This document shows positions 100-24,798 of a stretch of 64,000 nt of DNA, piece by piece. The stretch spans positions 53-64,052 of the forward strand of contig JACRCW010000017.1 in the NCBI GenBank assembly GCA_016218805.1, given 5' to 3'. The notes under the pieces were generated by a model. It saw only the letters and a list, made by a program, of their open reading frames with translations. It made no database searches and was not told the DNA's origin. The position numbers and the translations under genes were made by a program. The stretch is from Deltaproteobacteria bacterium (GTDB taxonomy: Bacteria; Myxococcota; JACRCW01). How positions within the stretch are numbered: position 1 is the stretch's first letter; the number at the start of each line of letters is the position of its first letter.

Positions 100-435
100 G
101 TGACCGGCGAACGACGGAGTGGCGCCAATCGGGGCGGCACCGACAAGGACTTGGCGATCGCCGGGATTGCGGTCGGTGGCGAAAGCGAGTGCCCCGATTC
201 AATCGCATTGCACGACCGGGAGAAGACGTGGGCGCACAGAAGGAAATCGCACCTCGACGAACCGTCCAGACACGCCCGCCGCCTGGGCCTGGATTCCAAG
301 GAGCGGAAGAGAATAGGGGCGGCCACCGTGCTCCCAAGCGGGCTTACCCTCGCGGAAACGCAGGCCTTGCTTGCGGCCGGGTACGTCGACGCCGAACGTC
401 GGCTTGCCGAACGTCGGGCGAGTAGCCGCGAGTAA
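100..435 (+). CDS. Hypothetical small protein (island cargo)
   Basis: The ORF has acceptable codon bias and no recognisable motif. Confidence 0.25.
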   Translation: MTGERRSGANRGGTDKDLAIAGIAVGGESECPDSIALHDREKTWAHRRKSHLDEPSRHARRLGLDSKERKRIGAATVLPSGLTLAETQALLAAGYVDAERRLAERRASSRE

Positions 436-532: not shown

Positions 533-763
533 ATGACCAGCAACCCGCAGACCACGGACCGCGCCGCCCTCGTCGAGGCCGGGCTTATTTCAATCGAACA
601 GGCTTGCGAGCTGTCCTCGCTGGGACGGACCACGATCTACGCAGCGATGACGACGGGTGAACTGCGCTTCGCCCGGATCGGCCGCGCCCGCCGCATTCCC
701 CGCCGCGCACTGCTGGACTGGCTCGCGGCGCACGTCGTCGGCGGTGAGCAGTCCGCCGCCTGA
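533..763 (+). CDS. AlpA/excisionase-family HTH DNA-binding protein
   Basis: The motif LISIEQACELSSLGRTTIYAAMTTGELRFARIGRARRI is typical of HTH_17/AlpA/Xis proteins. The gene sits directly upstream of the primase, as in P4-like and PICI elements. Confidence 0.6.
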   Translation: MTSNPQTTDRAALVEAGLISIEQACELSSLGRTTIYAAMTTGELRFARIGRARRIPRRALLDWLAAHVVGGEQSAA

Positions 764-855: not shown

Positions 856-2454
856 ATGGACACATCTACTACGACGACGACGACGACGGCGCCACCCGGA
901 CCCGACGCTGCGGGCCGCGTCCCGCGCGAATCACGCTCGCCAGCGGACGACCACGTGCACGCGGGCCCAGGAGGGCACCTCACCGATCTGGGCATTGCCG
1001 ACCGGCTTGTGCGTCGTCGTGGTGCGGACATGCGCCACTGCGCCGCGCGGGGGCAATGGCTCCTTTGGGACGGCCACCACTGGCAACCCGATCAACGCGG
1101 GTGCGCCATCCGCTTTGCCGCGGAAGAAGCGCGCGCCGCCACGACGGAGGCCGCCCGCTCTGGCGCTGACGCGAGGGTGCTCGCCGCCGCGAAGCGGCAG
1201 GAGGCGCACGGCCGCGTCTTGGGCGCGCTCGCCCTGGCCGCAGTGCACCCGCTGATCGCCGTGACCGCCGCGGATTTGGACGTGGACTCATGGCTGCTGA
1301 ACGTGCAAAACGGAACGCTGGACCTCCGCAGCGGCACCCTGCGGCCACACCGTCGTGACGACCTGCTCACGCACATGCTGCCCTTTGACTTCGACCCAGT
1401 GGCCCCGTGCGCGCGATGGGACCGCTTCCTCCACGAGGTCATGGACGGCCGGCAGGACTTGGTAGCCTTCCTCAGGCGCTGGTTTGGCTACTGCCTTACC
1501 GCGGACGTGCGCGAGCACGCGATGCTTTTCCTTGTCGGCGACGGGCGCAACGGGAAAGGCTGCCTCGTCGAAACGATCCAGCACGTGATGGGCCCGCGCT
1601 TGACGGGCGCCGCTCCCGAAGGCCTGTTGCTCCAGCAGCACGGCGCTCGCCACCCTGCTGACGTTCAGTTTCTCGCCGGCCGGCGCTTGATAGTCGCCAG
1701 CGAGGTTCCACAGGGTGCGGCGTTCAACGAGGAGCGAATCAAGAAGTTGACGGGGGGTGACACGTTGAACGCGCGTGGTATGCGGCAGGACTTCGCGGAC
1801 TTCACGCCCACGCACAAGATCGTCGTGCAGGCGAACCATCACCCGCGCGTGCGGGATCAATCGGCGGCGTTGTGGCGTCGCATGCGCGTGGTGCCCTTTG
1901 ACGTCTCGTTTGCTGGGCGCGAGGACCGCGGGCTGAAGGCCGCGTTGTGTGCGGAGGCGCCGGGGATCCTCGCGTGGCTGGTGGCAGGCTGCTTGGAATG
2001 GCAGAAGCACGGCCTGGGCGAGCCGCTGGCAGTGGCCCAGGCCACGGCCGGCTACCGGGCCGACGAGGACTTCCTTGGCCAGTGGTCGGCGGACTGGCAG
2101 TCGCGGTACCCGACGGCGGGGGAAACGAAAGCCGCGGACCTGCATGCCGACCTCCGGGCGTGGTGCGAACATCAAGGCGAGCACCCGCCGCGCCAGCGCG
2201 ACCTTGCCCGGGAACTCCACCGCCTGGGGTGGGTTCATCACCCAACGGCCCGGCCGGTCGCATGGAGCCCGCCGCAGTCTGCGCAGGCTGCGCAGTCTGA
2301 TTTGTATGACGCGGCTACACGCGCGCGTAAGGGCGTCAATGGGGAACAGACTGCGGCAGCCTGCGAGACTGCGGAAACCTGTCCGTCGGTGTCCGCTGGC
2401 GTCCAAACAGCCCCTCGCCCCTGGCCGGCCGATCCGGCGGAGGCCAAGGCATGA
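856..2454 (+). CDS. Phage/plasmid primase, P4 family, with C-terminal SF3 helicase/NTPase domain
   Basis: A Walker A motif (LFLVGDGRNGKG) is followed by a D5_N/primase-C-like region. At 532 aa it has the size and layout of P4 alpha-like primase-helicases. Confidence 0.8.
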   Translation: MDTSTTTTTTTAPPGPDAAGRVPRESRSPADDHVHAGPGGHLTDLGIADRLVRRRGADMRHCAARGQWLLWDGHHWQPDQRGCAIRFAAEEARAATTEAARSGADARVLAAAKRQEAHGRVLGALALAAVHPLIAVTAADLDVDSWLLNVQNGTLDLRSGTLRPHRRDDLLTHMLPFDFDPVAPCARWDRFLHEVMDGRQDLVAFLRRWFGYCLTADVREHAMLFLVGDGRNGKGCLVETIQHVMGPRLTGAAPEGLLLQQHGARHPADVQFLAGRRLIVASEVPQGAAFNEERIKKLTGGDTLNARGMRQDFADFTPTHKIVVQANHHPRVRDQSAALWRRMRVVPFDVSFAGREDRGLKAALCAEAPGILAWLVAGCLEWQKHGLGEPLAVAQATAGYRADEDFLGQWSADWQSRYPTAGETKAADLHADLRAWCEHQGEHPPRQRDLARELHRLGWVHHPTARPVAWSPPQSAQAAQSDLYDAATRARKGVNGEQTAAACETAETCPSVSAGVQTAPRPWPADPAEAKA

Positions 2455-2488: not shown

Positions 2489-3082
2489 ATGACCGCGGAG
2501 GGGGAAGCAACGCGCGCGTCCAGCGATACGGATCGCCCCGCACCCGGGGCAGAAGGTGGCACCATGACGACCACAAGGAGCCGGAAACGGCCGCAAATGG
2601 CAGGACGGCAGACCCGCGCGTTGTCCGCGCTGCTGAGCCACCACACGGTGGTTGCCGCGGCACGCGCCGCAGGTGTGGGTGAGCGGACGCTCCGCAGGTG
2701 GCTAGCGAGCGACGCCGCGTTCCAAGCAGAGTACCGCGCCGCGCTCCGGGACCTGGCGTCCCAGATCGCGCTGCGCCCCGTCGTCGCGTCTGAGACGGCG
2801 CTGGACGTGCTGACTGCGGTGATGGAAGACCCGGGCACACCTGCTTCGGTTCGCGTTGCCGCGGCAGGGAAGGTCATCGACGCTGCGCTGCGCATCATTG
2901 AGAAGGACGGAACGCTGAACGCGCACGCTGACGGGGCCGCGACGGTGCCCGCGATCACCGGTGAGTTGTCGCCGGGTGTTGAGCCGCCAAGCGAAGCGGA
3001 CGCCCACGGCACGGACACAGGTGCGGTGCACCAGCTGCCGTTGAATCCCCTGCGCCGTAGCCGGGCAGGTGGTGCCGAATGA
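2489..3082 (+). CDS. HTH protein with terminase-small-subunit-like N-terminal motif (paralog 1)
   Basis: The motif TVVAAARAAGVGERTLRRWLASDAAFQAEYRAA matches the TerS N-terminal HTH pattern (A.AGYS..TA......L.). Its stop overlaps the start of paralog 2. Confidence 0.5.
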   Translation: MTAEGEATRASSDTDRPAPGAEGGTMTTTRSRKRPQMAGRQTRALSALLSHHTVVAAARAAGVGERTLRRWLASDAAFQAEYRAALRDLASQIALRPVVASETALDVLTAVMEDPGTPASVRVAAAGKVIDAALRIIEKDGTLNAHADGAATVPAITGELSPGVEPPSEADAHGTDTGAVHQLPLNPLRRSRAGGAE

Positions 3083-3480
3083 AGCCCAATGATCCCTCCC
3101 CACAGCTGCCCCGCCGGCAGGAAGCCGCCCTGATGGCGTTGCTGGAGAGCCCCACGCTGAACGCGGCCGCAGCGAAGGCCGGGTGCAGCAAAGCGACGCT
3201 GCGCCGCGGGTTGGCCGAGGAGGCGTTCCTGGCGGCCTACCGAGCGGCTCGGCGGGAACTGATGGGGCACACCGCGGCACGCCTCCAAGCAAGCGCTGCC
3301 GAGGCGCTGGACGCATTGCGGGCCATCATCGCGGACGCGGATGCGCCAGCCGCCGCACGCGTCACCGCAGCGCGCACCGTGCTGGAGATGGCGACACGCA
3401 CCGCGGAAACGGAAGAACTGAGTGAGCGCGTGGCAAAGCTTGAAGCTGCCGCGCTAGCGACGGAGGAAACATGGGCATGA
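3079..3480 (+). CDS. HTH protein, terminase-small-subunit-like (paralog 2)
   Basis: The motif TLNAAAAKAGCSKATLRRGLAEEAFLAAYRAARRE is a paralog of the upstream gene. The two overlap by ATGA. Confidence 0.5.
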   Translation: MKPNDPSPQLPRRQEAALMALLESPTLNAAAAKAGCSKATLRRGLAEEAFLAAYRAARRELMGHTAARLQASAAEALDALRAIIADADAPAAARVTAARTVLEMATRTAETEELSERVAKLEAAALATEETWA

Positions 3481-3689
3481 AACAGAGGGTAGAAGCGCTT
3501 GAGCGCCGCGCACCGAAACCACAGGCGCGGATCCACTACGTCGTCCGGAAGGCCGACGATGACGACACGTGCCCACATTGCGAGCGCGAACAAGCCACCG
3601 GGGTGCCGCCTGGCAAGGTTGTGCACCTCACGTGCATCCGTCGCCGGGCCAGCGAAGTGCCGGCACGGCCGCCCGACGAGCAAGGGTGA
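3471..3689 (+). CDS. Small protein with a CxxC motif (possible zinc-binding)
   Basis: The ORF is 72 aa with a coiled N-terminus and a CPHCE...LTC motif. Its start overlaps the end of the upstream gene. Confidence 0.35.
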   Translation: MGMKQRVEALERRAPKPQARIHYVVRKADDDDTCPHCEREQATGVPPGKVVHLTCIRRRASEVPARPPDEQG

Positions 3690-4147
3690 TCGCTGCCGTT
3701 CGCGGCGGACAACTCGCAGTCACGGCAGCGGCGCGCACCCTGGATCAGCGCTCGACCTCGCGCTGTGGGCATGCGGCATCCTCGGCCGCTTCCTTGGCCG
3801 CCTTGCGGGCTGCCTCTCCATTCTTTCCGGCTGCCTCCTCCGCCTTGCGGGTTTGCTTTCTGCTCAACCTGCGCCTCGCACACCTCTCGATCGCGCCCCG
3901 TGTTCTCCCGTGTCCGCCATGCACTGACATACGTCCCGGCAGAGGATCTCCGGTTCCGGTGCTGTGGACGCGGATGCAGCAAGTCAGGACCGGGGCAGGC
4001 GAGTCACCGCGGCCGAAGTAGACAAAAAGCACCATAGGGCTACAGTGAATGCTGGGCCGCCGGGGATGGCCGCTCAAGCTACGGCCTAGGTCGCTATCCC
4101 TCAAGTTCCGTCACCAGCCCCATGGGACGGATGCAACGAAGGGTACG

Positions 4148-4762
4148 ATGGCCACCGCTGCCGATGCTTCTGCGTTCCTCTTGGAGATTCAGCTCCAGCT
4201 GGACACGTACAAGCTTCACAAGTTGCTGTACTATGCACAAGGTTGGCACCTCGCGTGGTACGGCGAGCCCCTCTTCTCTGACAGGCTCGAGGCATGGGTG
4301 AACGGCCCGGTTGCGCCCGGCGTCTTCCATGAAACGCGCGGACTCCGCGAGGTGCGTGCGGTGCCGAGTGGAGACGGATACGCGCTTACTGAATGGCAAC
4401 AGCGCACCCTCCGCGAAGTGATGCGCGTGTACGGGGCTTTCTCTGGCGCGGACTTGGCCGAGCTCACCCATCAGGAGCCGCCGTGGAAAGCCGCCCGGGC
4501 AGGCCTTCCGCCTGATGCGAGATCAGACGCGGAAGTCGAACGTGCCGCCATGAAGCAGTTTTTTGCAGGCCTAGCCGCCATTGGAGAGGAAAAGGGGCGC
4601 ATTCCGCAAGGCGTAGTGGTTGGACTGCTGGCCTGGGCGAACATGAAGACCACCGAGCGAATGGACTTGGCACACCAAGACTTCGTCGACGCCGACGCGG
4701 ACGCCTATGCAAGGTGGATGAACGACGGCGGTGATGAGCCGTGGCCCGAACCGCGCGCCTGA
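4148..4762 (+). CDS. Panacea-domain (DUF4065, SocA/PanA-like) antitoxin-type protein
   Basis: The motif KLHKLLYYAQGWHLAWYGEPLFSDRLEAWVNGPV matches the Panacea-domain signature. The start was chosen at the internal Met. Confidence 0.7.
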   Translation: MATAADASAFLLEIQLQLDTYKLHKLLYYAQGWHLAWYGEPLFSDRLEAWVNGPVAPGVFHETRGLREVRAVPSGDGYALTEWQQRTLREVMRVYGAFSGADLAELTHQEPPWKAARAGLPPDARSDAEVERAAMKQFFAGLAAIGEEKGRIPQGVVVGLLAWANMKTTERMDLAHQDFVDADADAYARWMNDGGDEPWPEPRA

Positions 4763-5022
4763 GCAGGGCGTTCATCCGGCAATGCCACGACCTCAGGTGC
4801 CATGATCCCTCATGCGCTGTCGCCATTGCCCAGGTGGTGCGCGACCTCTGCGCATCCGAGCCTCTTCCCGGGGTGGGCGACACCCGTGCGTTGATGCCCC
4901 CGGTGGTGCACTGCCACGCACGTGCCCTCGAAACGCATTTTCGTTGGTTGCTCTACGAGTTCGATGACGAGCACGTTCACTTCCTTGGCATTAGCAGCAC
5001 CGACCCTTCGCCCAGGCAGTGA
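4741..5022 (+). CDS. ParE/RelE-fold toxin candidate, overlapping the Panacea gene
   Basis: A 22-nt overlap with the upstream gene is typical of toxin-antitoxin operons. The C-terminus RWLLYEFDDEHVHFLGI resembles the ParE/RelE (R.vYrVdde...V.iLrI.H) pattern, and codon bias is good. Confidence 0.4.
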   Translation: MARTARLSRAFIRQCHDLRCHDPSCAVAIAQVVRDLCASEPLPGVGDTRALMPPVVHCHARALETHFRWLLYEFDDEHVHFLGISSTDPSPRQ

Positions 5023-5549: not shown

Positions 5550-6092
5550 CTACTTGACCACCTCCCGCTCGCGAGGCGTGGCGTTCTCTCCCTTGCGCTG
5601 GTCCTTCCACTTCTTGGCGCGTTCGCGTTCCACCTCCACCTCGCACACTTCCTGCTCCTGCCCGGTCTGGTCCATGCAAACCTTGACGTCATGATCGACC
5701 TGGGGTTCGTCGTCTTGGACCGGCGGCCGGTCGCTTCGGCGCTGGTAGTAGTCCGGGACCGGTGGTGCCTTCGGTGCGGTGAAGCGGGCGTCCAAACCGG
5801 TGTAGCCCAGCCGCACCAGCACGATGCCGATTCCGAGGACAGCGGCGCACGCCACGCACAAACCGACGAGCGCGGCGATGGGCAGGAGCCCCACGACCGC
5901 GCCGACGTAGGCTGTGGTGCCCACTGTTGGCGCCAAGGACACGGCAGCGGCAACCCCCACCAGCGCGCCGATGGCGGCGCCAGCCAAGCCTACCAGCCCT
6001 CCCGCGAGCCCGAATCCTCCCCACGTCGTGAACGCCGCGCCGAATGCCAGCTGCACCGCGGCCATTGCGACGTCGACTGATCCGGTCTCCAT
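5550..6092 (-). CDS. Glycine-zipper membrane protein with a charged C-terminal tail
   Basis: The N-terminus contains GGFGLAGGLVGLAGAAIGALVGVAAAV, a 2TM glycine-zipper motif. The C-terminus is acidic and basic. The start was chosen at an internal Met. Confidence 0.5.
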   Translation of the reverse strand: METGSVDVAMAAVQLAFGAAFTTWGGFGLAGGLVGLAGAAIGALVGVAAAVSLAPTVGTTAYVGAVVGLLPIAALVGLCVACAAVLGIGIVLVRLGYTGLDARFTAPKAPPVPDYYQRRSDRPPVQDDEPQVDHDVKVCMDQTGQEQEVCEVEVERERAKKWKDQRKGENATPREREVVK

Positions 6093-6415
6093 GCTGACCC
6101 CCGAGGTTGAACGCGGCCGGATGCTGCCGCGGTTCCGCGCTCCCGTCGACGTGCCGCACGTGCGACGCATGCTGACGCTGGCAAACGCTGCGCGCCGCGG
6201 CGGCAAACGTGTCGCGCCGTTCTCCGCCTCGGGGCTGAACGGCCATTCACCCGCTCGGGAAACGCGCTGCATGACGTATCCCATCCCCACGCATTGCCAG
6301 TCTGTCACGTCGTGCCCTGCCCCGGCTGTTACGGCGGGAACCCGCTGTAACGGATCTTGCCCGGGCGTGTCGCTTTGTGGTTGACGATGGGACGCAGCGT
6401 AATACACTGGGACGC

Positions 6416-7096
6416 ATGGAAACCCGCACCGTTGCCTACATCCGCGTGTCCACCGACAAGCAGGCCGACAAGGGCGTGAGCCTGGAGGCCCAGCGGGCGA
6501 AGGTGGAGGCCTACGCCACCCTCTACGATCTGGACATCGTGGACGTGGTGGTGGACGCGGGCGTTTCCGCCAAGACGCTGGACCGGCCGGGGCTCAACCG
6601 TGCGCTGGGGATGCTCAAGTCCGGCGCGGCTGACGCGCTGCTGGTGGTGAAGCTGGACCGCCTCACCCGCAGCGTCGTGGACCTTGGGACGCTGGTGGAC
6701 GCCTACTTCGCGGCGGGCAAGTGGGCGCTTCTGTCCGTGGGTGAGCAGATCGACACCCGCAGCGCCGCGGGCCGTCTCGTCCTCAACGTGCTGGCCAGCG
6801 TGAGTCAGTGGGAGCGCGAAGCCATCGGGGAGCGCACCAGCGCGGCGATGCAGCACAAGGCGTCACAGGGCGAGTACACCGGCGGTGGGGCGCCGTACGG
6901 CTTCCGCGTGGCGGCGGACGGCGTGCACTTGGACGAGGAACCCGCGGAGCAAGCGGTGCTTGATGAAGCACGCGCCCTGCGCGCCGCGGGGTTGTCCCTG
7001 CGCGCGGTGGCGGCGGAACTGGATCGGTTGGGCATGCGGTCTCGCGTGGGAAGCCCCTTCGCCGCTGTGCAGGTGGCGCGGATGGTGGCGGCATGA
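6416..7096 (+). CDS. Serine recombinase (resolvase/invertase family)
   Basis: The N-terminus VAYIRVSTDKQ carries the catalytic Ser motif, and there is a resolvase fold with a C-terminal HTH. Confidence 0.85.
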   Translation: METRTVAYIRVSTDKQADKGVSLEAQRAKVEAYATLYDLDIVDVVVDAGVSAKTLDRPGLNRALGMLKSGAADALLVVKLDRLTRSVVDLGTLVDAYFAAGKWALLSVGEQIDTRSAAGRLVLNVLASVSQWEREAIGERTSAAMQHKASQGEYTGGGAPYGFRVAADGVHLDEEPAEQAVLDEARALRAAGLSLRAVAAELDRLGMRSRVGSPFAAVQVARMVAA

Positions 7097-7440
7097 CGGC
7101 GCGGCCGGTGGACCTGGACGCGGTGCGCGCGTCGCGGAAGCGCCTGCGCGCCCTGGCGGCGGCGCACCCGCAGCTGCGCGGCGAGCCCGGCGCGAACAAC
7201 GTGAGCGGATGGGAAGCAACCCTGGCGACGGAGGAAGCACGAATGGCGACGCAACAGGTTGGGATCAGGCTGCCGGAGGAACTGGTGGCGCGGCTGGACC
7301 AGCACGTTGAGCGGATGCGCGCGGCGCAGCCAGGCCTTGAGGTGACCCGCGCGGATGCTGTGCGGGTGCTCCTGACCAAGGCGCTGGACGCGGAGGGCGG
7401 CAAGCCCGCGGCAAGGACCAAGAAGGGGACCCGCCCATGA
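7093..7440 (+). CDS. Ribbon-helix-helix (CopG/Arc-like) DNA-binding protein
   Basis: The motif VGIRLPEELVARLDQHVERMR...TRADAVRVLLTKAL is RHH-like. It shares ATGA overlaps with both flanking recombinase genes. Confidence 0.6.
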   Translation: MTARPVDLDAVRASRKRLRALAAAHPQLRGEPGANNVSGWEATLATEEARMATQQVGIRLPEELVARLDQHVERMRAAQPGLEVTRADAVRVLLTKALDAEGGKPAARTKKGTRP

Positions 7441-8570
7441 CCCGCGCGCGGCGTGGGCGCGGCGAAGGCGGCGTCTACCAGCGCCCGGACGGACTTTGGT
7501 CTGCGCAGCTGTCGCTTGGGTACGACGGGAACGGCGGTCGCCTCCGCCGCACGCTCTACGGGCAGTCCAAGCGGGACGTGCAAGCGAAACTGCGCGCCCT
7601 TCAGACGGACGCTGACGTGGGAACGCTTGTCGCCCCGGAGCGGCTCACCGTTTCGCAGTTTCTGTCGCGGTGGCTGGACTCGGCCAAGCAGACGATCCGG
7701 GCGACAACCGCTGCGCGGTACCGCGCCCTCATCCGCGTCAGCGTGGGCCCGCACATCGGCGGCATTCCTGTGCAGAAGCTCCAGCCGCTGCAGGTCCAGG
7801 CGCTCTACGCCAAGCTGGAAGCTGCGGGGCTCGCGCCCTCAACACGTCGTCAGGTGCACGCCATTCTGCACCGTGCGTTTGCCCAGGCGGTCCGGTGGGG
7901 GAACATGGTCCGCAATCCCTGTGACGCCGTGGACAAGCCACGCGTGCCCAAGCACCGGGTTGACGCACTGAAGCCAGAGGAGGTGGCGAAGCTCGCGGAG
8001 GCTGCCAGCGGGGACCGCCTCGCGGCGCTGTACGTGCTCGCCCTCTCAACGGGGATGCGGCAGGGCGAACTGCTGGGCTTGCAGTGGTCGGACGTGGATC
8101 TCCCTGGGCGCGCCGTTGTCGTGCGGCACTCGCTGGAGGAAATCGCGGGCAAGCTGCGCCTGTCCGAAACCAAGTCCGGGAAGGTGCGTCGCGTTGACCT
8201 GGACGCGCACACCGTGGATGCGCTGCGGGAGCACCGGAAGCGCATGCTGGCGGAGGGTCACCCGGGGCCCTGGGTCTTCCCGGACACGGAGGGGAACCCG
8301 CTGCGCAAGTCCAACCTCGTCCGCCGGTCCTTCAAGCCGCTGCTGAAGCGCGCCGGGCTGCCGGACATCCGCTTCCACGACCTGCGCCACGCGGCTGCCA
8401 CGCTGATGCTCCTGCAGGGCGTCAACCCGAAGGTGGTCCAGGAGCGCCTTGGGCATGCGCAGCTAACCATCACGCTGGACGTCTATGGTCACGTCCTGCC
8501 CACCATGCAGGCCGACGCGGTGGCGAAGATGGACGCCTTTTGGCGGAGCGCGGCAGTTACTACTGCCTAA
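7437..8570 (+). CDS. Tyrosine integrase (phage integrase family)
   Basis: The protein has an N-terminal SAM-like domain and a C-terminal catalytic domain with R...HDLRHAAATLML...Y. It reads towards the tRNA fragment. Confidence 0.9.
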   Translation: MTRARRGRGEGGVYQRPDGLWSAQLSLGYDGNGGRLRRTLYGQSKRDVQAKLRALQTDADVGTLVAPERLTVSQFLSRWLDSAKQTIRATTAARYRALIRVSVGPHIGGIPVQKLQPLQVQALYAKLEAAGLAPSTRRQVHAILHRAFAQAVRWGNMVRNPCDAVDKPRVPKHRVDALKPEEVAKLAEAASGDRLAALYVLALSTGMRQGELLGLQWSDVDLPGRAVVVRHSLEEIAGKLRLSETKSGKVRRVDLDAHTVDALREHRKRMLAEGHPGPWVFPDTEGNPLRKSNLVRRSFKPLLKRAGLPDIRFHDLRHAAATLMLLQGVNPKVVQERLGHAQLTITLDVYGHVLPTMQADAVAKMDAFWRSAAVTTA

Positions 8571-8693
8571 CTACTGCCAATGGGGCGGAAAGTGGCGAAC
8601 CGCGGCGGTTGGTGGCGGATGCGTGGCCCGTCCGGTTGACGTCGTCAGCGAACGCGTGCGGCCGTCCGCGGCAGAAAGCGGAAACCCGCCCGT

Positions 8694-8740
8694 TCGGACT
8701 CATAATCCCTAGGTCGGCGGTTCGATTCCGCCCCCCGCTA
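8694..8740 (+). other. Partial tRNA 3' fragment (anticodon loop CTCATAA with CAT, T-arm GGCGG-TTCGATT-CCGCC, acceptor 3' strand). Candidate att core of the island.
   Basis: The T-arm is canonical, but no matching 5' acceptor or D-arm could be found, so this is not a complete tRNA. Integrating elements produce exactly this kind of partial 3' copy. Confidence 0.45.
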
Positions 8741-19449: not shown

Positions 19450-22400
19450 TCAGGTGCCGCCGTCCGCCGGGCAGGTGCCACCGTCCGCGCGCTGGCAGAA
19501 GCGCGCCCGCACCTGGAGGGTCTCCACGGCCACCGCCCCGCCGTCCGCGTCCACCGCCCGCACCTGCACGGCCACCGCGGGAGCGCCGCCCGGCAGGCGG
19601 ACCGTGTGCCGTGCGGGTTGGGGCACCGTGCCAGACGCCAGCGGCTGCCAACTGCCCGCGGCGGGTCCCACGGACTGCCACGCGTGGAGGCTGCCGGCAG
19701 GCACCCCCGCGTCCGAGGACTGGTCAACGTCCACCGCGACTTCGCGCAGGTGGGCGGTGGACAGGTGGGCCTCCGACAGGGGGGCCCCCAACGTCAGGCT
19801 CCCCGCCGGGTGGCGGGGGCTTTCCAGGATCCACGTGCCTTCCGAGTTGCCGCTGGGACCTGACGCGGACAGCGCCAACACGCCGCCGGCCACGGGGTCA
19901 TAGGCCGCGCCTACCACGCCCTCCAGCGCCAGGGGCCGCGGCGCCAGCGGCAGGGCGCGGAAGTGCAACGCGGCGCCGTCCCAGGTGACCTCCAGGGACG
20001 GCACCGCCGTTCCGCCGCGCGGGTCCATCGCGGACGTGCTGTCACCGCCCACCACCACCAGCGCCTGCCGCACCGGGTCATACGCCAGGGTGTGATTGGC
20101 ACGCGCCGGCGGGGCGTCCACCACGGGAGTGGCGTTCACCCAGCGGTGCGTGCCCGGGTCCAACAGCCACGCGTCCGCCAGCGGGCCGGTGTCGCCCAGG
20201 CCGCCGTACAGCACCACGGCGCGGGCCTCCGCAAAGTACGCCATGGCGGCGGCGCGTCGCGGTGGCGGCCGTGTGGGCGAATCACCCGACACGTCACTCC
20301 ACAGCGCCAGCGCAGCGTTGCGGTTGAAAGTGAGCGTGGTGTCCAGGAGTGTGCCGCTGCCGTTGGCGCCGCCAAACAGGAAGGTGGTGGACGGAAAGCC
20401 GGTGGCGTCCACCAGGGCCAGCGCACCGTCCGCGCGTCCCGGGTTGGGCCCCAGCAGGCAGGCGCCCGCCACATTCAGCCCGTTGGCGTCCAGCGTGGCG
20501 TACCCGCACAGCATCAACGTGCTGGTGGGTCCCACCAGCACGGCTTCCACGCTGTCAGTCTCCGGCGGCACGGCCCCCATGGTCAGGCCCAACGGGTAGT
20601 TGTTGAGCAGGTTCAACATGGAGGACGACGTGGTCCACGCGCCGGCGCTGCCGCGCCAGAGCTGCACGGCGCCGCTGGAGTCCTGCACCACGGCAACGGG
20701 CGCGGACCTCCCCATGACCATCAACACGCGGCCGCCTGCGGGCGCGCGCAGCGGCGCGGGGGTCACCTCCGCCCAGCCGGGTGCCTCGCTCCAGGCCCAC
20801 AGGGTGCGGCGCGTGCAGGTTTCACCCGGGAGGGCCTCACAGCCGGCCAGCAGCAGCCGCCCCACCAGTGCGCCGTCCGCGCGCCAGCCGCGGTGCGGGT
20901 CCAGGAACCCGGCCGCCGCGGGCTGTGGTCCCGGCGTCACGGACGTGGCCACGGTGGACCAGGTGCCCGCCCGCAGCCGGGAGAGCGTGTCCGCCGTGGC
21001 GCTGCCGCCGTAGAGCAGCAGGTCCCCGTTGGACGGGTCCACCACCATCAGGTGCCCGCTGCGGGCCGGGGCCGCGCCCGCCGTCCCCACCGCCGCGAAA
21101 CTGACGCCGTCAAAACGCCACAGGTCGGCCAGCGGCGTGCCGGCCGCGGAGGTCCCGCCGTGGACCAGCACCGTGCCGGTGGCCGGCTCCCAGGCGCCGG
21201 CCGCCCCACGCCGCGCGGACAGGGTGGCCCCCGGCACGGCGCGCCACGCGTACCCGTTCCACTCCCACGTGCTGGTGCTGAAGGTGGCCGGCGGTTGGGC
21301 GCAATCCCGCACGCCGCCCACCAGCACCACGGCGCCCCGGCCGGGGTCCGCCACCAGGGTCGCCTGGGCGCGGCCTTCGGGCGCGGCTTCCAGGGCAAAG
21401 GCCGCACCGTCCCAGCGCCACACGTACGGCAGCGCGTCATTCCCCCCGCCGCAGCCGCCATAGAACATCACGCCACCACCCACCGGGTCGTACGCGGCCG
21501 CCACGCCGCGCAGGCCGACGGGGAGGTCACCGCGCAGCTCGGGGAAGCGCCAGCTGGAACCGTCATACTCCGCCACCTGGGCGCTGCTGCCCGCCCACGC
21601 CAGCAGCACCAGCCGGTCACGTGCGGGGTCATACGCGCCGGCCATGTCCGCGGACGCCAGCGGTGTCCCGTCCGGCACTTCCACCACACGCCACTGCGTG
21701 CCACCGGACATCACCAGCGCCCCGTCCGCCGCGCCCGCCAGCCGCGGGTGCCCCGCCCCGGGCGTCACGCCCCAGGACCCGCCCGTGTCCACGGGCAGCG
21801 GGTGCGGCGGCCAGGCCCCGCTCTGCCAGACCACCGGCGCGGCACCCCGCGTCGGGACCACGGTCTCCACGTCCAGCTCGGTGTGCTGCAGGGGCACCGG
21901 CGTGGACTCGTTGCCGGCCTCATCCACGGCGGTGACCAGCACGCCGCGCCCTTCCATGCCGGTCCACACGGGGCTGCTGGACTGCCAGGCCCCCGCCCGG
22001 TCCTCCCACCCCACCTGCGACAGCAACCGCGGGGCGGAACCCAGCGGGCCCGCGTCGGCTTCGGCGGTCACCGGCCAGTCCCAGAAGCGCAGCAGGCGCA
22101 CGTGCGCCCCCGCCGGGAACCCAAAGTCCTGCGGCCCCAGGTCCACCCGGGCGGCGCCCAGCCCGGTGCTGCCCACCACGCTGAACACCGCGCTGCCGGT
22201 GACCTCGCTGTAGCGCTCCCCGGGGACCGTCACCGGCCCTCCACCCGGCTCCGGACCGCCGCCGCCTGTGGGGCCCAGGCCGCCCGTGGTGGTGCCGGCG
22301 TCCGCGTCAGCGGGCAGCCCGGGCAGGGTGACCGCGCTGACTGGCGTGTAGTGCTTGGCGGTGGGCTGCCGCAGCAGCGCCACGTTGTGCTGCCGCACCT

Positions 22401-24798
22401 GCAGCTGCGGCGCGCGGGCGCGGACGTGCAGCACCGGGGCGGCCAGGCCACCGTCACGGTCATTGGGGTTGCCCGCCAGGTCGGTCAGCTCCGGGTACAG
22501 CGCGTAGTCCCCGGTGGGCGCACTCCCGGCGACGGCGCGGAACATCACCAGGTAGGTGCTTTCGCCCGCCGACGGGTCCGCCACAAAACGGATGGCGCCG
22601 CCGTCCCTGCCGCGTGCCACCAGGGCGGGCCCCGCGTCCCCGGCGGCAAACACCGGCTCATTGGCCACCAGCACCGCCAGCACCTCCGTGTCCGGCCGTG
22701 CCGCCGTCACGTCCTGCACGGGGTTGTCCGGCGCGGGCAGGTACAGCAGTTCCGCCACGGGCAGCGTGGGTGCCGCCAGGTCATACGGGACGGTGGCCAC
22801 CGCCGTGGTGCGGTTTCCGGCGGGGTCGCGCAGGGTGACCTCCAGGGACACAAAGCCCTGCGGCAGGTCAGCCCGGATGCCGGTGCTGCAGGACCAGTCC
22901 GCACCGGTGGCCGTGCAGGTCATGGCGTCACCTTCAAAGCGCGCCTCCGCCACGTTGGCCGCGTCCAGGTTGCCACCCGGGGCGTCCAACGCCTGGAAGG
23001 TGGCGGTGAGCTGACCGCCGGCCCGTTCCGCCGGGCCAATCCGCGCCGGGGCCACCTGCAGCCCGCTGATGGCCGGGGCCTGCCCGTCCACCACAAAGTC
23101 CGGCAGCTGGGTCAGCGCCGTGACGTTTCCCGCGCGGTCCGCGAACAGCATGGTATCCGCCGCCAGCGTCCACACGCCGTCCAGCGCGCCCTCCGGCACC
23201 TCAAACGTCCACTGCCCAAAGCTGCCTGACACCGACGCCACCACGGGGTGCCGCACGCCCGCGGGGTCCAACAACTGCGGCTGCACCGCGGCGAACTCAA
23301 CCGGTTCGTCCGCGTAGGCGGACAGGAACACCGTCATGCCGGGCCGCACCAGCGCCGGCTGCAGGTCCGGCACCACGCCCGGCGCCCGCTTGTCCACGAC
23401 GATGTTGCGGAACGGGACGAACTCGCCGGTGCGGCCCGACTCGTCCATGAGGTCCACCCGCACGGGTGCTTCGCCATCCGGAATGTCCGCGGTCACCGTC
23501 ACCTCACCGGTGCAGTCCGTGCGGGTGGCGTCCGTGCACGTGGGTCCTCCGTCCGGGGAGAACGGCGTGTCCCGCAGGCGCATGGCGGGGGGCGCGGCCA
23601 GAGGTTTGTTGGCGGTGACGCGCAGGCGCAGCGTGACGCCGGCGTTCACCAGGTGGCTCCCGCCGTCCGCGGTGATGCCCAGCGTGCCGCCGTCAGCCAG
23701 CACGCGGCCCAGGCTGGCGGTCTCCAACTGCACCGCGTCCGGGTCCCGCCGCACCGTGCCCACGTCCACGGACACGCGGTTGTCCGCCAGGTCCGCAAAG
23801 GCCACGCGCGCCGTGTAGGTGGTTCCCAGCGCCAGGGTCCCGGCCGCCGCCCGCGAGCGGAACAGGAAGGTGGACGTGGCCAGCCCCACCGGCCCTTCCA
23901 CGAGGTCAAACGCCCACGCCGGGTCCTCCACCAGGGTCACGGACGCGGTGGGCAGCGCGCGCTCGTCCACGGTGAACTCCACCGTGACAAACGCGGTGTC
24001 CGCCGCCAGTGACGGGGTCACGTGCGCTTCCGGTGACCCGTCCGGTTCCAGGGCCAGCGCGGGCGGCTGCAGGTCCAGCACCACGTCGGTGGACACGGTG
24101 CGGGACGCGTAGCCTTCGTCATCCACAAACCGGGCGAACACCCGCCGCCGGCAGACGTTGGGGGCCGCACACGGGGTGGACAGGCCCACGTCCAGGTTCC
24201 ATGGGATGGCTTGGTCCGCCGTGCCGCTCAGTTCCACCCGCCGCGTGCGGGGCACCGCCGCGTCCCCGTCATCCGGGAAGGTGGACACGTTGCTGAGGCG
24301 GACGTACCGGCCCACCGGTTGCCTGACGAGCAGGGTGACATCCGCGGAGCCCACCACCCCTTCGGACGACACCACGCCAATGGCCCCGTCGTCGGGATCG
24401 GGTGACGGGCGCAGGCGGACGCGCACGTCCACCGGCTCGTCGCGGACGCCGGGTTTGAGGGAAAACGGCGCCGAAATCCCGTAGTAGACGACAGGTGCGG
24501 AGAAGTCCTCGGCTCCACGGAACTCCACGCTGACCACCAGGCCATCACCGTTGTCCACGTTCTTGAAGTCCAGCTGCATGCCGGGGCCGTAGCGCACCGG
24601 CCCCACCGTGCGGACGTCGCTGTCGCGCGTGACGCGGCCCACAATCCACAGCACCTCGTCGGGGGAAGGGCGTTGGGACTCCCAGGTGAAGTGCACCCGG
24701 AACGTGCCCCCGCGCGACGTGCCCGGCCACTGCCAGCCGGAGCACGCCACCAGGGCGGACGCGGCGCACATCAGGACGACGCGTGTCTTCATGGCCAC
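19450..24798 (-). CDS. Giant (1782 aa) secreted lipoprotein with beta-propeller (Kelch/galactose-oxidase-like) and Ig-like repeat regions
   Basis: There is a lipoprotein signal (LVACSG), repeated Gly/Trp-rich blade-like segments, and a start 4 bp after the stop of the upstream PEGA gene. Confidence 0.75.
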   Translation of the reverse strand: MAMKTRVVLMCAASALVACSGWQWPGTSRGGTFRVHFTWESQRPSPDEVLWIVGRVTRDSDVRTVGPVRYGPGMQLDFKNVDNGDGLVVSVEFRGAEDFSAPVVYYGISAPFSLKPGVRDEPVDVRVRLRPSPDPDDGAIGVVSSEGVVGSADVTLLVRQPVGRYVRLSNVSTFPDDGDAAVPRTRRVELSGTADQAIPWNLDVGLSTPCAAPNVCRRRVFARFVDDEGYASRTVSTDVVLDLQPPALALEPDGSPEAHVTPSLAADTAFVTVEFTVDERALPTASVTLVEDPAWAFDLVEGPVGLATSTFLFRSRAAAGTLALGTTYTARVAFADLADNRVSVDVGTVRRDPDAVQLETASLGRVLADGGTLGITADGGSHLVNAGVTLRLRVTANKPLAAPPAMRLRDTPFSPDGGPTCTDATRTDCTGEVTVTADIPDGEAPVRVDLMDESGRTGEFVPFRNIVVDKRAPGVVPDLQPALVRPGMTVFLSAYADEPVEFAAVQPQLLDPAGVRHPVVASVSGSFGQWTFEVPEGALDGVWTLAADTMLFADRAGNVTALTQLPDFVVDGQAPAISGLQVAPARIGPAERAGGQLTATFQALDAPGGNLDAANVAEARFEGDAMTCTATGADWSCSTGIRADLPQGFVSLEVTLRDPAGNRTTAVATVPYDLAAPTLPVAELLYLPAPDNPVQDVTAARPDTEVLAVLVANEPVFAAGDAGPALVARGRDGGAIRFVADPSAGESTYLVMFRAVAGSAPTGDYALYPELTDLAGNPNDRDGGLAAPVLHVRARAPQLQVRQHNVALLRQPTAKHYTPVSAVTLPGLPADADAGTTTGGLGPTGGGGPEPGGGPVTVPGERYSEVTGSAVFSVVGSTGLGAARVDLGPQDFGFPAGAHVRLLRFWDWPVTAEADAGPLGSAPRLLSQVGWEDRAGAWQSSSPVWTGMEGRGVLVTAVDEAGNESTPVPLQHTELDVETVVPTRGAAPVVWQSGAWPPHPLPVDTGGSWGVTPGAGHPRLAGAADGALVMSGGTQWRVVEVPDGTPLASADMAGAYDPARDRLVLLAWAGSSAQVAEYDGSSWRFPELRGDLPVGLRGVAAAYDPVGGGVMFYGGCGGGNDALPYVWRWDGAAFALEAAPEGRAQATLVADPGRGAVVLVGGVRDCAQPPATFSTSTWEWNGYAWRAVPGATLSARRGAAGAWEPATGTVLVHGGTSAAGTPLADLWRFDGVSFAAVGTAGAAPARSGHLMVVDPSNGDLLLYGGSATADTLSRLRAGTWSTVATSVTPGPQPAAAGFLDPHRGWRADGALVGRLLLAGCEALPGETCTRRTLWAWSEAPGWAEVTPAPLRAPAGGRVLMVMGRSAPVAVVQDSSGAVQLWRGSAGAWTTSSSMLNLLNNYPLGLTMGAVPPETDSVEAVLVGPTSTLMLCGYATLDANGLNVAGACLLGPNPGRADGALALVDATGFPSTTFLFGGANGSGTLLDTTLTFNRNAALALWSDVSGDSPTRPPPRRAAAMAYFAEARAVVLYGGLGDTGPLADAWLLDPGTHRWVNATPVVDAPPARANHTLAYDPVRQALVVVGGDSTSAMDPRGGTAVPSLEVTWDGAALHFRALPLAPRPLALEGVVGAAYDPVAGGVLALSASGPSGNSEGTWILESPRHPAGSLTLGAPLSEAHLSTAHLREVAVDVDQSSDAGVPAGSLHAWQSVGPAAGSWQPLASGTVPQPARHTVRLPGGAPAVAVQVRAVDADGGAVAVETLQVRARFCQRADGGTCPADGGT

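Follow-up and report, generated by a model that had tools for sequence, protein, structure and literature searches.

A terminase small subunit-like gene pair and an overlapping mini-gene as a candidate packaging module of a satellite-like island in a Deltaproteobacteria genome

The window analyzed here is a stretch of 64,000 nt from a Deltaproteobacteria metagenome-assembled genome (MAG; contig JACRCW010000017.1), with a base composition of about 70% G+C. At 2489-3689 it carries three co-directional open reading frames (ORFs), ORF1, ORF2, and ORF3 (Table 1), with successive overlaps of 4 nt and 10 nt. An earlier note, made from the sequence alone, had described two paralogous helix-turn-helix (HTH) proteins with a motif reminiscent of the terminase small subunit (TerS), followed by a CxxC mini-protein, and had read the tandem duplication as pointing to a satellite-type module for packaging redirection or regulation. 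The overlapping trio was indeed found at that place. Here, we describe the three genes, their relatives, and the surrounding island, and we propose that the trio is probably the DNA-packaging specificity module of a small integrated phage satellite resembling phage-inducible chromosomal islands (PICIs).

The trio as such was retained, but the start of ORF1 had to be changed. With the alternative upstream ATG at 2489, which had been assumed in the earlier note, ORF1 would encode 197 aa. The codon-position GC values for the codons in 2489-2563 are 0.72/0.76/0.68 and thus lack the high-low-high coding pattern, whereas the values for 2564-3082 are 0.73/0.58/0.77. In addition, a ribosome-binding site, GAAGGTGG, precedes the ATG at 2564, and this is also the start in the NCBI annotation. 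Therefore, the true ORF1 most likely spans 2564-3082, and the start at 2489 is unlikely. The ATG of ORF2 and the stop codon of ORF1 share the tetranucleotide ATGA. NCBI places the start of ORF2 at 3133, 18 codons downstream of 3079. The upstream start was preferred because homologs keep an RQxxAIxALL N-terminus and because the 18 extra codons have a coding composition. The late NCBI start masks the ATGA coupling to ORF1. ORF3 was not called in the NCBI record and is present in the Logan assembly only. Its start is preceded by GGAGGA at a distance of 5 nt, its codon-position GC values follow the coding pattern (0.75/0.51/0.74), and the residues of its putative zinc knuckle are C34-P-H-C37 and H52-x-x-C55. 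A fusion of ORF2 and ORF3 via a -1 frameshift was considered and rejected: the overlap does not contain a slippery heptamer of the canonical kind, and a separate GGAGGA site precedes ORF3.

Table 1. Features of the island in the window and orthologs of the trio in locus L008
Feature	Position	Strand	Description and evidence
AlpA/excisionase-type HTH protein	533-763	+	76 aa; PF12728 HTH_17 E=1.2e-11; phrog_66 excisionase/regulator
P4-family primase C-terminal / D5-like helicase	856-2454	+	D5_N 3e-32, DUF5906, TIGR01613 8.6e-78, PHROG DNA primase 6e-114
ORF1	2564-3082	+	172 aa, TerS-like paralog A; HTH, helical hairpin, disordered acidic/Pro-rich tail of about 47 aa
ORF2	3079-3480	+	133 aa, TerS-like paralog B; HTH, two long helices, 'RVxxLE' coiled-coil end
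ORF3	3471-3689	+	72-aa candidate partner protein; N-terminal helix, beta-like segment, CPHC...HLTC putative zinc knuckle
SocA/Panacea-domain antitoxin	4049-4762	+	PF13274 2.5e-19
Candidate toxin, overlapping the antitoxin gene	4741-5022	+	93 aa; faint YoeB-like match E=0.045; no PADLOC match
ORF without assignment	5550-6272	-	240 aa; coding-like codon-position GC
Small serine recombinase	6416-7096	+	226 aa; Resolvase 1.6e-36
Ribbon-helix-helix (RHH) protein	7093-7440	+	RHH_1 4e-4
Tyrosine integrase	7437-8570	+	Phage_integrase PF00589 2.7e-30
Truncated tRNA-Met(CAU)-like sequence	8677-8740	+	Anticodon arm, T arm, 3' acceptor; no D arm
ORF1 ortholog	L008 1514-1963		56% identity, E=9e-49
ORF2 ortholog	L008 P0006		57% identity, E=2e-28
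ORF3 ortholog	L008 1288-1527		41% identity, E=3e-9

ORF1 and ORF2 are paralogs, in agreement with the earlier note. BLASTP aligned them with 49% identity across 74 aa (E=2e-12), which is far beyond chance, and the identity was 45% over a core alignment of about 100 columns. Comparison with the PHROG TerS families bore out the suspected relationship to TerS for ORF1, which matched phrog_4044 at E=3e-8, while the matches of ORF2 were weak (0.02-0.04). Single-sequence searches of both proteins against PDB sequences yielded nothing meaningful, and NCBIfam and PADLOC gave no useful match for the trio, only a faint one to the mad1 HTH (E=0.003). A word-indexed homology search retrieved 21 relatives of ORF1 and 12 of ORF2, and these counts implied a rare family. 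This turned out to be an artefact of sensitivity: a HMMER profile of the ORF1/ORF2 family, run against 1.84 billion representative proteins, retrieved 27,097 clusters at E<=1e-3 and 14,288 at <=1e-10. When 56 family members were scanned singly, 52 of them matched phrog_2538 'terminase small subunit' (<=1e-3), 44 matched phrog_7344, 41 matched phrog_3218, and 32 matched PF13022 (phBC6A51 type). The results were thus not confined to unrelated HTH families devoid of any link to phages, the outcome that the earlier note had named as contrary to its view, but included TerS and phage families.

The structures of both proteins were predicted as monomers with AlphaFold2. The model of ORF2 had a predicted local distance difference test score (pLDDT) of 94.6 and consists of a three-helix HTH followed by long helices at residues 48-85 and 91-132 (pLDDT >95). 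For ORF1, the mean pLDDT was 77.5, with values >90 in most of the core. In the ORF1 model, HTH helices at 14-49 are followed by a hairpin of two helices (51-88 and 94-125), and residues 126-172 form a disordered tail (pLDDT<55). A Foldseek comparison with TerS structures, which had been suggested beforehand, returned TerS proteins as the best matches. With the ORF2 model, the top 14 PDB matches were 2AO9, the TerS of PaP3, and the TerS of NV1 (including 6W7T and 7JOQ), with probabilities of up to 1.0 and modest E-values of 0.015-0.4, and no structure of Rpp, Ppi, or Gpi was among the top 50 PDB matches listed for ORF2. Matches in BFVD were mostly named 'terminase small subunit' (best E 1.3e-5, TM 0.73). 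The protein in 2AO9 stems from phBC6A51 and is treated as a small terminase in PMC11331095.

TerS proteins share a plan of HTH, helical-hairpin oligomerisation core, stalk, and flexible C-terminus, and have a size of about 15-21 kDa (PMC9611059). Members of the class form rings of 8-12 subunits, bind pac or cos DNA, and stimulate or recruit the large terminase subunit. ORF1 and ORF2 both have the N-terminal HTH, the helical hairpin with the stalk extension, and the size of this class. Judged by profiles and predicted folds, ORF1 and ORF2 appear to be members of a large TerS family of the Sf6-gp1/phBC6A51 type. The TerS proteins of Sf6 (gp1), phBC6A51 (2AO9, PF13022/PF20901), and PaP3/NV1, with which they share a size of 14-18 kDa, an HTH, a helical-hairpin core, and a helical extension, are their best structural and profile matches. 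In contrast to these phage proteins, the window genes have no neighboring gene for the terminase large subunit (TerL), and the single gene is replaced by two diverged paralogs. Moreover, a flexible C-terminal moiety is missing from the end of ORF2, and a separate gene for 72 aa comes next. In ORF1-type proteins (window and L008), a PxITxxLSxGxxPPSExD tail replaces the 'DLxxRLxxLE' coiled-coil end of the family.

Next, the genomic neighborhoods of the homologs were compared. Four phage contigs carry P0002, which has 42% identity to ORF1, immediately upstream of a Terminase_6N/6C gene, and a homolog in L022 lies upstream of a Terminase_6C protein. In all, an adjacent TerL gene was found for homologs in L001-4, L022, L037, and L042. 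In contrast, no TerL gene adjoins the trio, and TerL queries found nothing in the whole 64-kb window. A tblastn search of 50,697 annotated phage records (INPHARED) with the family member P0058 matched 35 records, 31 of which are named 'Streptococcus satellite phage Javan...'. These Streptococcus satellite prophages have been described in PMC6813308. Their gene order is int(-), repressor(-), cro-like, primase, TerS-like gene, small ORF, toxin-antitoxin cargo. They thus share with the window the TerS-like family, with the gene near the 3' end, the cargo downstream, and a small ORF that overlaps or abuts the TerS-like gene and whose product has a basic amphipathic helix at its start and then a beta segment. 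The TerS-like gene is unannotated in these satellites. Unlike the window, they contain a single TerS-like gene with only about 35% identity to ORF2, the small ORF has no CxxC, int and repressor are divergent in the canonical order, and the hosts are Firmicutes.

Islands that contain a TerS-like gene and no TerL are not restricted to Streptococcus. In Desulfotomaculum copahuensis (L007), int, HTH_3, HTH_17, primase, a TerS-like gene, a 58-aa ORF, and a 101-aa ORF follow each other and are flanked by housekeeping genes. Further TerL-less islands with a family member were found in the metagenomic contigs L005, L008, and L009, and the same layout occurs in MAGs of Bryobacterales, Phycisphaerae, Vicinamibacterales, and Deltaproteobacteria. 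The earlier note had proposed a check of neighborhood conservation in other myxobacterial islands; TerL-less islands with a TerS-like gene recur in distant phyla, and orthologs of the whole trio are present in L008. There, the gene order is permuted to ORF2-ORF3-ORF1, behind an unrelated upstream gene. In the core alignment of window and L008, the orthologous pairs were 55-59% identical and the cross-pairs 44-48%. As orthologs are closer to each other than paralogs, the duplication predates the split between the window and L008, and both copies have been maintained. Three loci were uninformative: the relative in L016 is the HTH of an IS630-type transposase, and L012 and L015 are lone genes.

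For ORF3, database searches found no homolog and no family in Pfam, PHROGs, or NCBIfam, and its relatives were identified only by their position beside TerS-like genes. In most such islands, the TerS-like gene is followed by a small gene that usually overlaps its end, and these mini-proteins share the N-terminal amphipathic helix of ORF3 (KQRVEALERR). The N-terminal sequences are MGMKQRVEALERR in ORF3, MALKQRVEALERR in L008, KIKQRITTLEEK in L007, ERLKRLERR in L009, RVRRLEQ in L011, RINHLEK in L012, RISKLEA in L014, RRLQALERV in L021, RRLKELED in L028, RIERLEAQ in L029, and RVRALERR in L031. The motif [RK][ILVM]xx[LIVM]E was present within the first 30 residues of 11 of 16 downstream neighbors, compared with 30 of 3,040 background ORFs of the same loci, and the binomial value of 4e-19 is inflated because the motif had been derived from some of the same cases. 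In metagenome loci that were looked at once the motif had been settled, four downstream neighbors were also positive (L026, L028, L029, and L031). CxxC was found only in the mini-proteins of the window, L008, L014, L013, and L005. Thus, the CxxC reported earlier for ORF3 is real, but the conservation of the third gene lies in the N-terminal helix rather than in the CxxC. The small ORFs of the Streptococcus satellites contain a looser helix (KKRVDKLRRL, LLKKIEELKK, IKKHIARLDEL), followed by a Gly linker and a hydrophobic strand that ends in D-G, and the same succession is found in ORF3 (...ARIHYVVRKADDDD).

Two of these loci differ in composition. In L014 (10438-11065, a Phycisphaerae MAG), three mini-ORFs come in tandem after the TerS-like gene and amount to an amplified ORF3; each has R[IL]xxLE at the start and two CxxC pairs (4-Cys zinc ribbons). 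In L021 (5828-8419, an uncultivated virus genome of IMG/VR), the TerS-like gene, the 90-aa RRLQALERV ORF, and an HNH endonuclease gene (PF01844, 1.5e-10) are grouped beside an integrase gene. This association of HNH and terminase genes resembles HK97-like cos phages and capsid-forming PICIs. The helix motif was also looked for in the N-termini of TerL proteins, with mimicry of TerL in mind; L001 and L022 had no match, and the idea was dropped.

A natural combination of the same parts was found in phage contigs. Among the 150 best profile matches, about 40 proteins, 260-455 aa long, contain two complete TerS-like modules. In one fused subfamily a C-terminal tail is added, 'IGRNLHQRLQRLK..(G)..IRxxLVHAxDGRxAG...VW..PP'. 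P0183 in L037 (1218-3634) is such a fused double TerS, and its gene has a 4-nt overlap with a Terminase_3/Terminase_6C gene. The same 4-nt overlap occurs for P0186 in L042 (1277-2889), whose TerL is 81% identical to that of L037; the two phages are thus related and not independent lineages. P0183 and P0186 have 334-348 aa and consist of two TerS-like modules and a helix-and-beta tail, the parts of ORF1, ORF2, and ORF3, and unlike the trio they are single polypeptides next to TerL and have no CxxC. A one-to-one assignment of the modules to ORF1 and ORF2 was rejected. Between the two modules of a fused protein the identity is 33-57%, and both modules are ORF2-like, so these duplications were independent of the ORF1/ORF2 split, and duplication of the TerS module has been repeated in the family. 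That two modules and a tail form a single chain in the terminase position is evidence of the 'Rosetta-stone' kind for parts of this sort working together. In an hhalign comparison, the positional set of mini-proteins aligned with the fused tails over helix and strand (40 columns, P=1.2e-4); homology of ORF3 to the tail has only moderate support. No description of fused double-TerS proteins was found in the literature searched. These proteins also bear on the argument from duplication: double TerS modules occur in fused form directly upstream of TerL in phage contigs, and a tandem duplication as such does not signal a satellite.

The island that contains the trio covers at least 8.7 kb of the window, with nearly all genes on the + strand (Table 1). 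The genes for the serine recombinase, the RHH protein, and the integrase form one operon via two ATGA overlaps. The gene pair downstream of the trio is probably a PanA-type toxin-antitoxin cargo, by its domain matches, with an unclassified toxin. The tRNA-Met-like fragment scored 18.9 bits with Rfam, below the gathering score of 29, and was not called by ARAGORN; it looks like a remnant of the right attachment site. No second attachment-site copy and no intact tRNA were found in the window. The T-arm core is present only once, and therefore the left end of the island lies beyond the window; a Logan contig of the same sample gave no extension further to the left. Pfam and PHROGs yielded no match to capsid, portal, tail, lysis, or TerL families among the island ORFs. 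Direct repeats in the island look like chance matches, and the island had no megablast match among phage genomes.

Several further features of the region were noted. The island carries both a serine and a tyrosine recombinase. In L005, L009, and L028 as well, a small Resolvase-domain recombinase adjoins the TerS-like gene, and the one in L028 closely resembles that of the window by eye. At its start, the primase-helicase has a run of threonines (MDTSTTTTTTTAPP); the underlying ACG repeats at about 866-891 are a possible slippage-prone tract. Two ORFs with coding-like GC, the minus-strand ORF of 240 aa and an ORF at 100-435 (+), had no match in Pfam or PHROGs, and the former was also negative in NCBIfam and PADLOC. 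It is Gly/Ala-rich by eye and may encode a membrane protein. The rest of the window is ordinary host chromosome, including RtcB, DnaE, PGI, and a RecN-like gene. A host gene unrelated to the island, at 19450-24798 (-), encodes a protein of 1,782 aa with a Kelch beta-propeller and Big_13 Ig-like domains and adjoins the gene of a PEGA-domain protein.

The core set of PICIs comprises an integrase, an alpA/merR/stl regulator, a primase-replicase, a capsid morphogenesis gene, and a TerS (de Sousa et al., PMC10085698). Judged by matches to Pfam, PHROG, and NCBIfam rather than by SatelliteFinder's own profiles, four of these five parts are present in the island: the tyrosine integrase beside the tRNA-Met-like remnant, HTH_17 and RHH regulators, the primase-replicase, and ORF1 and ORF2 as homologs of the small terminase. 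A gene for capsid morphogenesis was not found, with no head or capsid match in PHROGs or Pfam. Such a set of four out of five would place the island among the 'Type B' elements. A capsid morphogenesis gene is absent in some bona fide PICIs such as the pathogenicity islands of Staphylococcus aureus (SaPIs). The tail, holin, and TerL genes that are forbidden in PICIs were not found in the visible 8.7 kb, the left end being outside the window, and the expected size of such an element is about 10 kb. The island resembles PICIs and SaPIs in the integrase, the AlpA-type regulator, the primase-replicase, the TerS homolog, and the accessory toxin-antitoxin cargo after the terS region, and, as far as it is visible, in its small size and the lack of structural and lysis genes. 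In contrast to them, its genes are co-directional with the integrase at the far end, a circularly permuted order, and it contains an additional serine recombinase, two TerS paralogs, and a mini-protein, and no capsid morphogenesis gene was found. Furthermore, its host is a Deltaproteobacteria MAG, outside the taxa in which PICIs have been catalogued. SaPIs encode their own TerS together with the inhibitor Ppi.

The closest functional precedent for a multi-protein packaging module of a satellite is found in the phage-inducible chromosomal island-like element (PLE) of Vibrio cholerae, in which three small adjacent genes, Gpi-GpsA-GpsB, decide whose DNA is packaged by the TerL of the helper (PMC11417361). 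This is a functional analogy only: Gpi is an inhibitor of TerL, and GpsA and GpsB are not known TerS homologs.

Taken together, the TerS family and fold, the homologs adjacent to TerL, the Streptococcus satellites, an integrase/primase island without TerL, the conservation of the trio in L008, and the recurrent mini-proteins led us to the view that the trio is probably the DNA-packaging specificity module of a small integrated PICI-like satellite, as far as genes and models can indicate. Of the module foreseen in the earlier note, the TerS-like paralogs in a satellite context are retained on these lines of evidence, and the reasoning from duplication is not. Several results weigh against this view. 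The Pfam matches of ORF1 comprise generic HTH families and Sf6_terminase (E=0.037, 14.5 bits vs a cut-off of 27 bits), all below threshold, and ORF2 has no Pfam match. In the comparison of the family profile with PDB sequences, the best match was the Sf6 gp1 TerS at an E-value of about 0.01, with TetR-type regulators close behind. In the HTH of ORF2, a Gly replaces the near-invariant Trp of the family. The strict helix motif fails in the small ORFs of the Streptococcus satellites. The hhalign probability for mini-proteins and fused tails was only 55%, so this link is weak, and with the CxxC-only set it was 3% (helix only, 19 columns), which is not significant. No gene for capsid-size redirection or another hijacking function was identified in the island, and structural genes could lie to the left of the window, as the left end of the island is located there.

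How might such a module operate? Upon infection by a helper phage, the island would be excised by the integrase and the Xis/AlpA-like HTH protein and would be replicated by the P4-type primase-helicase. The N-terminal HTHs of ORF1 and ORF2 would read the packaging (pac) site of the element itself, and the helical hairpins would build a TerS ring, into which both paralogs may co-assemble as a hetero-oligomer. The N-terminal amphipathic helix of ORF3 probably docks on the coiled-coil end of ORF2, and the TerL-facing stalk or C-terminal portion would probably be contributed in trans by the beta/zinc-knuckle part of ORF3; in lambda and P22, the C-terminus of TerS binds TerL (PMC9611059). Translational coupling via the ATGA and the 10-nt overlap would hold the three proteins in proportion. 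We infer that the complex of all three would mark the island DNA and recruit the TerL and the capsids of the helper. In its most specific form, this would be a heteromeric TerS of three components with divided roles, ORF1 as the canonical DNA-reading HTH, ORF2 as the coiled-coil stalk, and ORF3 as the TerL-facing end. We regard this form as tentative and rather doubtful.

A different division of labor would make ORF2 and ORF3 the working TerS, while ORF1 would poison or reprogram the TerS ring or the TerL of the helper, by analogy with Rpp of E. coli PICIs, Ppi of SaPIs, and Gpi of PLE. Such a role would refine the satellite reading and would not compete with it. Satellite proteins that block the TerS or TerL of the helper are known (PMC11417361), Rpp mimics the DNA-binding domain of TerS and forms a hetero-complex with the TerS of the helper (PMC6739421), and the distinct tail of ORF1 in the window and L008, in place of the RLxxLE end, would fit such a role. 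However, ORF1 retains the full oligomerisation hairpin, and the fusion of two complete TerS modules next to TerL in phages points to co-assembly rather than antagonism. Interference by ORF1 is considered unlikely, albeit less so than the two explanations that dispense with a packaging role.

According to the first of these, the HTH pair would regulate transcription or excision in an integrative element, which is possibly mobilisable, with ORF3 as a small co-regulator. The generic HTH and TetR-type matches mentioned above could be read in this way. However, the similarity to the TerS PHROGs runs past the HTH through the helical hairpin, homologs occupy the exact position of TerS upstream of TerL, the island already has separate AlpA/Xis-like and RHH regulators, and no transposase catalytic domain is adjacent, which together make regulators improbable. 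That the trio is a decaying terminase remnant of a prophage that lost TerL and its structural genes, and has no current function, is the least probable explanation, for although a TerS without TerL is the expected leftover of a deletion, ORF2 has lost the near-invariant HTH residue, and the tRNA at the island end is only a fragment, the three ORFs are intact, translationally coupled, and have the coding GC pattern, the trio with both paralogs has been kept at 41-57% identity in L008, the TerL-less layout recurs in Firmicutes, Planctomycetes, Acidobacteria, and the Streptococcus satellites, and the integration and replication genes are intact.

Under the preferred reading, a packaging specificity module of a PICI-like satellite, the TerS module itself is of a known kind, and the unusual features are the two maintained TerS paralogs and the previously unannotated mini-gene partner. 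Satellites are known to steal the packaging motor of phages by means of a small terminase of their own, and such satellites have been catalogued mainly in Proteobacteria, chiefly enterobacteria, and Firmicutes. With the present locus, a high-GC Deltaproteobacteria MAG is added to this pattern, and related islands occur in Planctomycetes, Acidobacteria, and Desulfotomaculum. For terminases, the locus points to two previously undescribed features: the TerS module has been duplicated repeatedly, whether as adjacent genes or within one chain next to TerL, and in TerL-less islands terS is directly followed by a conserved small partner gene, which usually overlaps it.

All TerS proteins characterized so far are homo-oligomers (PMC9611059). 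If the three proteins of the trio do co-assemble, they would be the first heteromeric TerS and would break the rule of one gene and one homo-oligomer. A TerS gene with an overlapping 'R-V-x-x-L-E' mini-gene and without TerL would then be a simple marker for satellites in unexplored phyla. If the proposed role of the third gene is true, many satellites, among them those of Streptococcus, would possess an unrecognized and widespread third packaging component in the small gene that follows and overlaps terS, and in some phages this component would be fused in cis to a double TerS.

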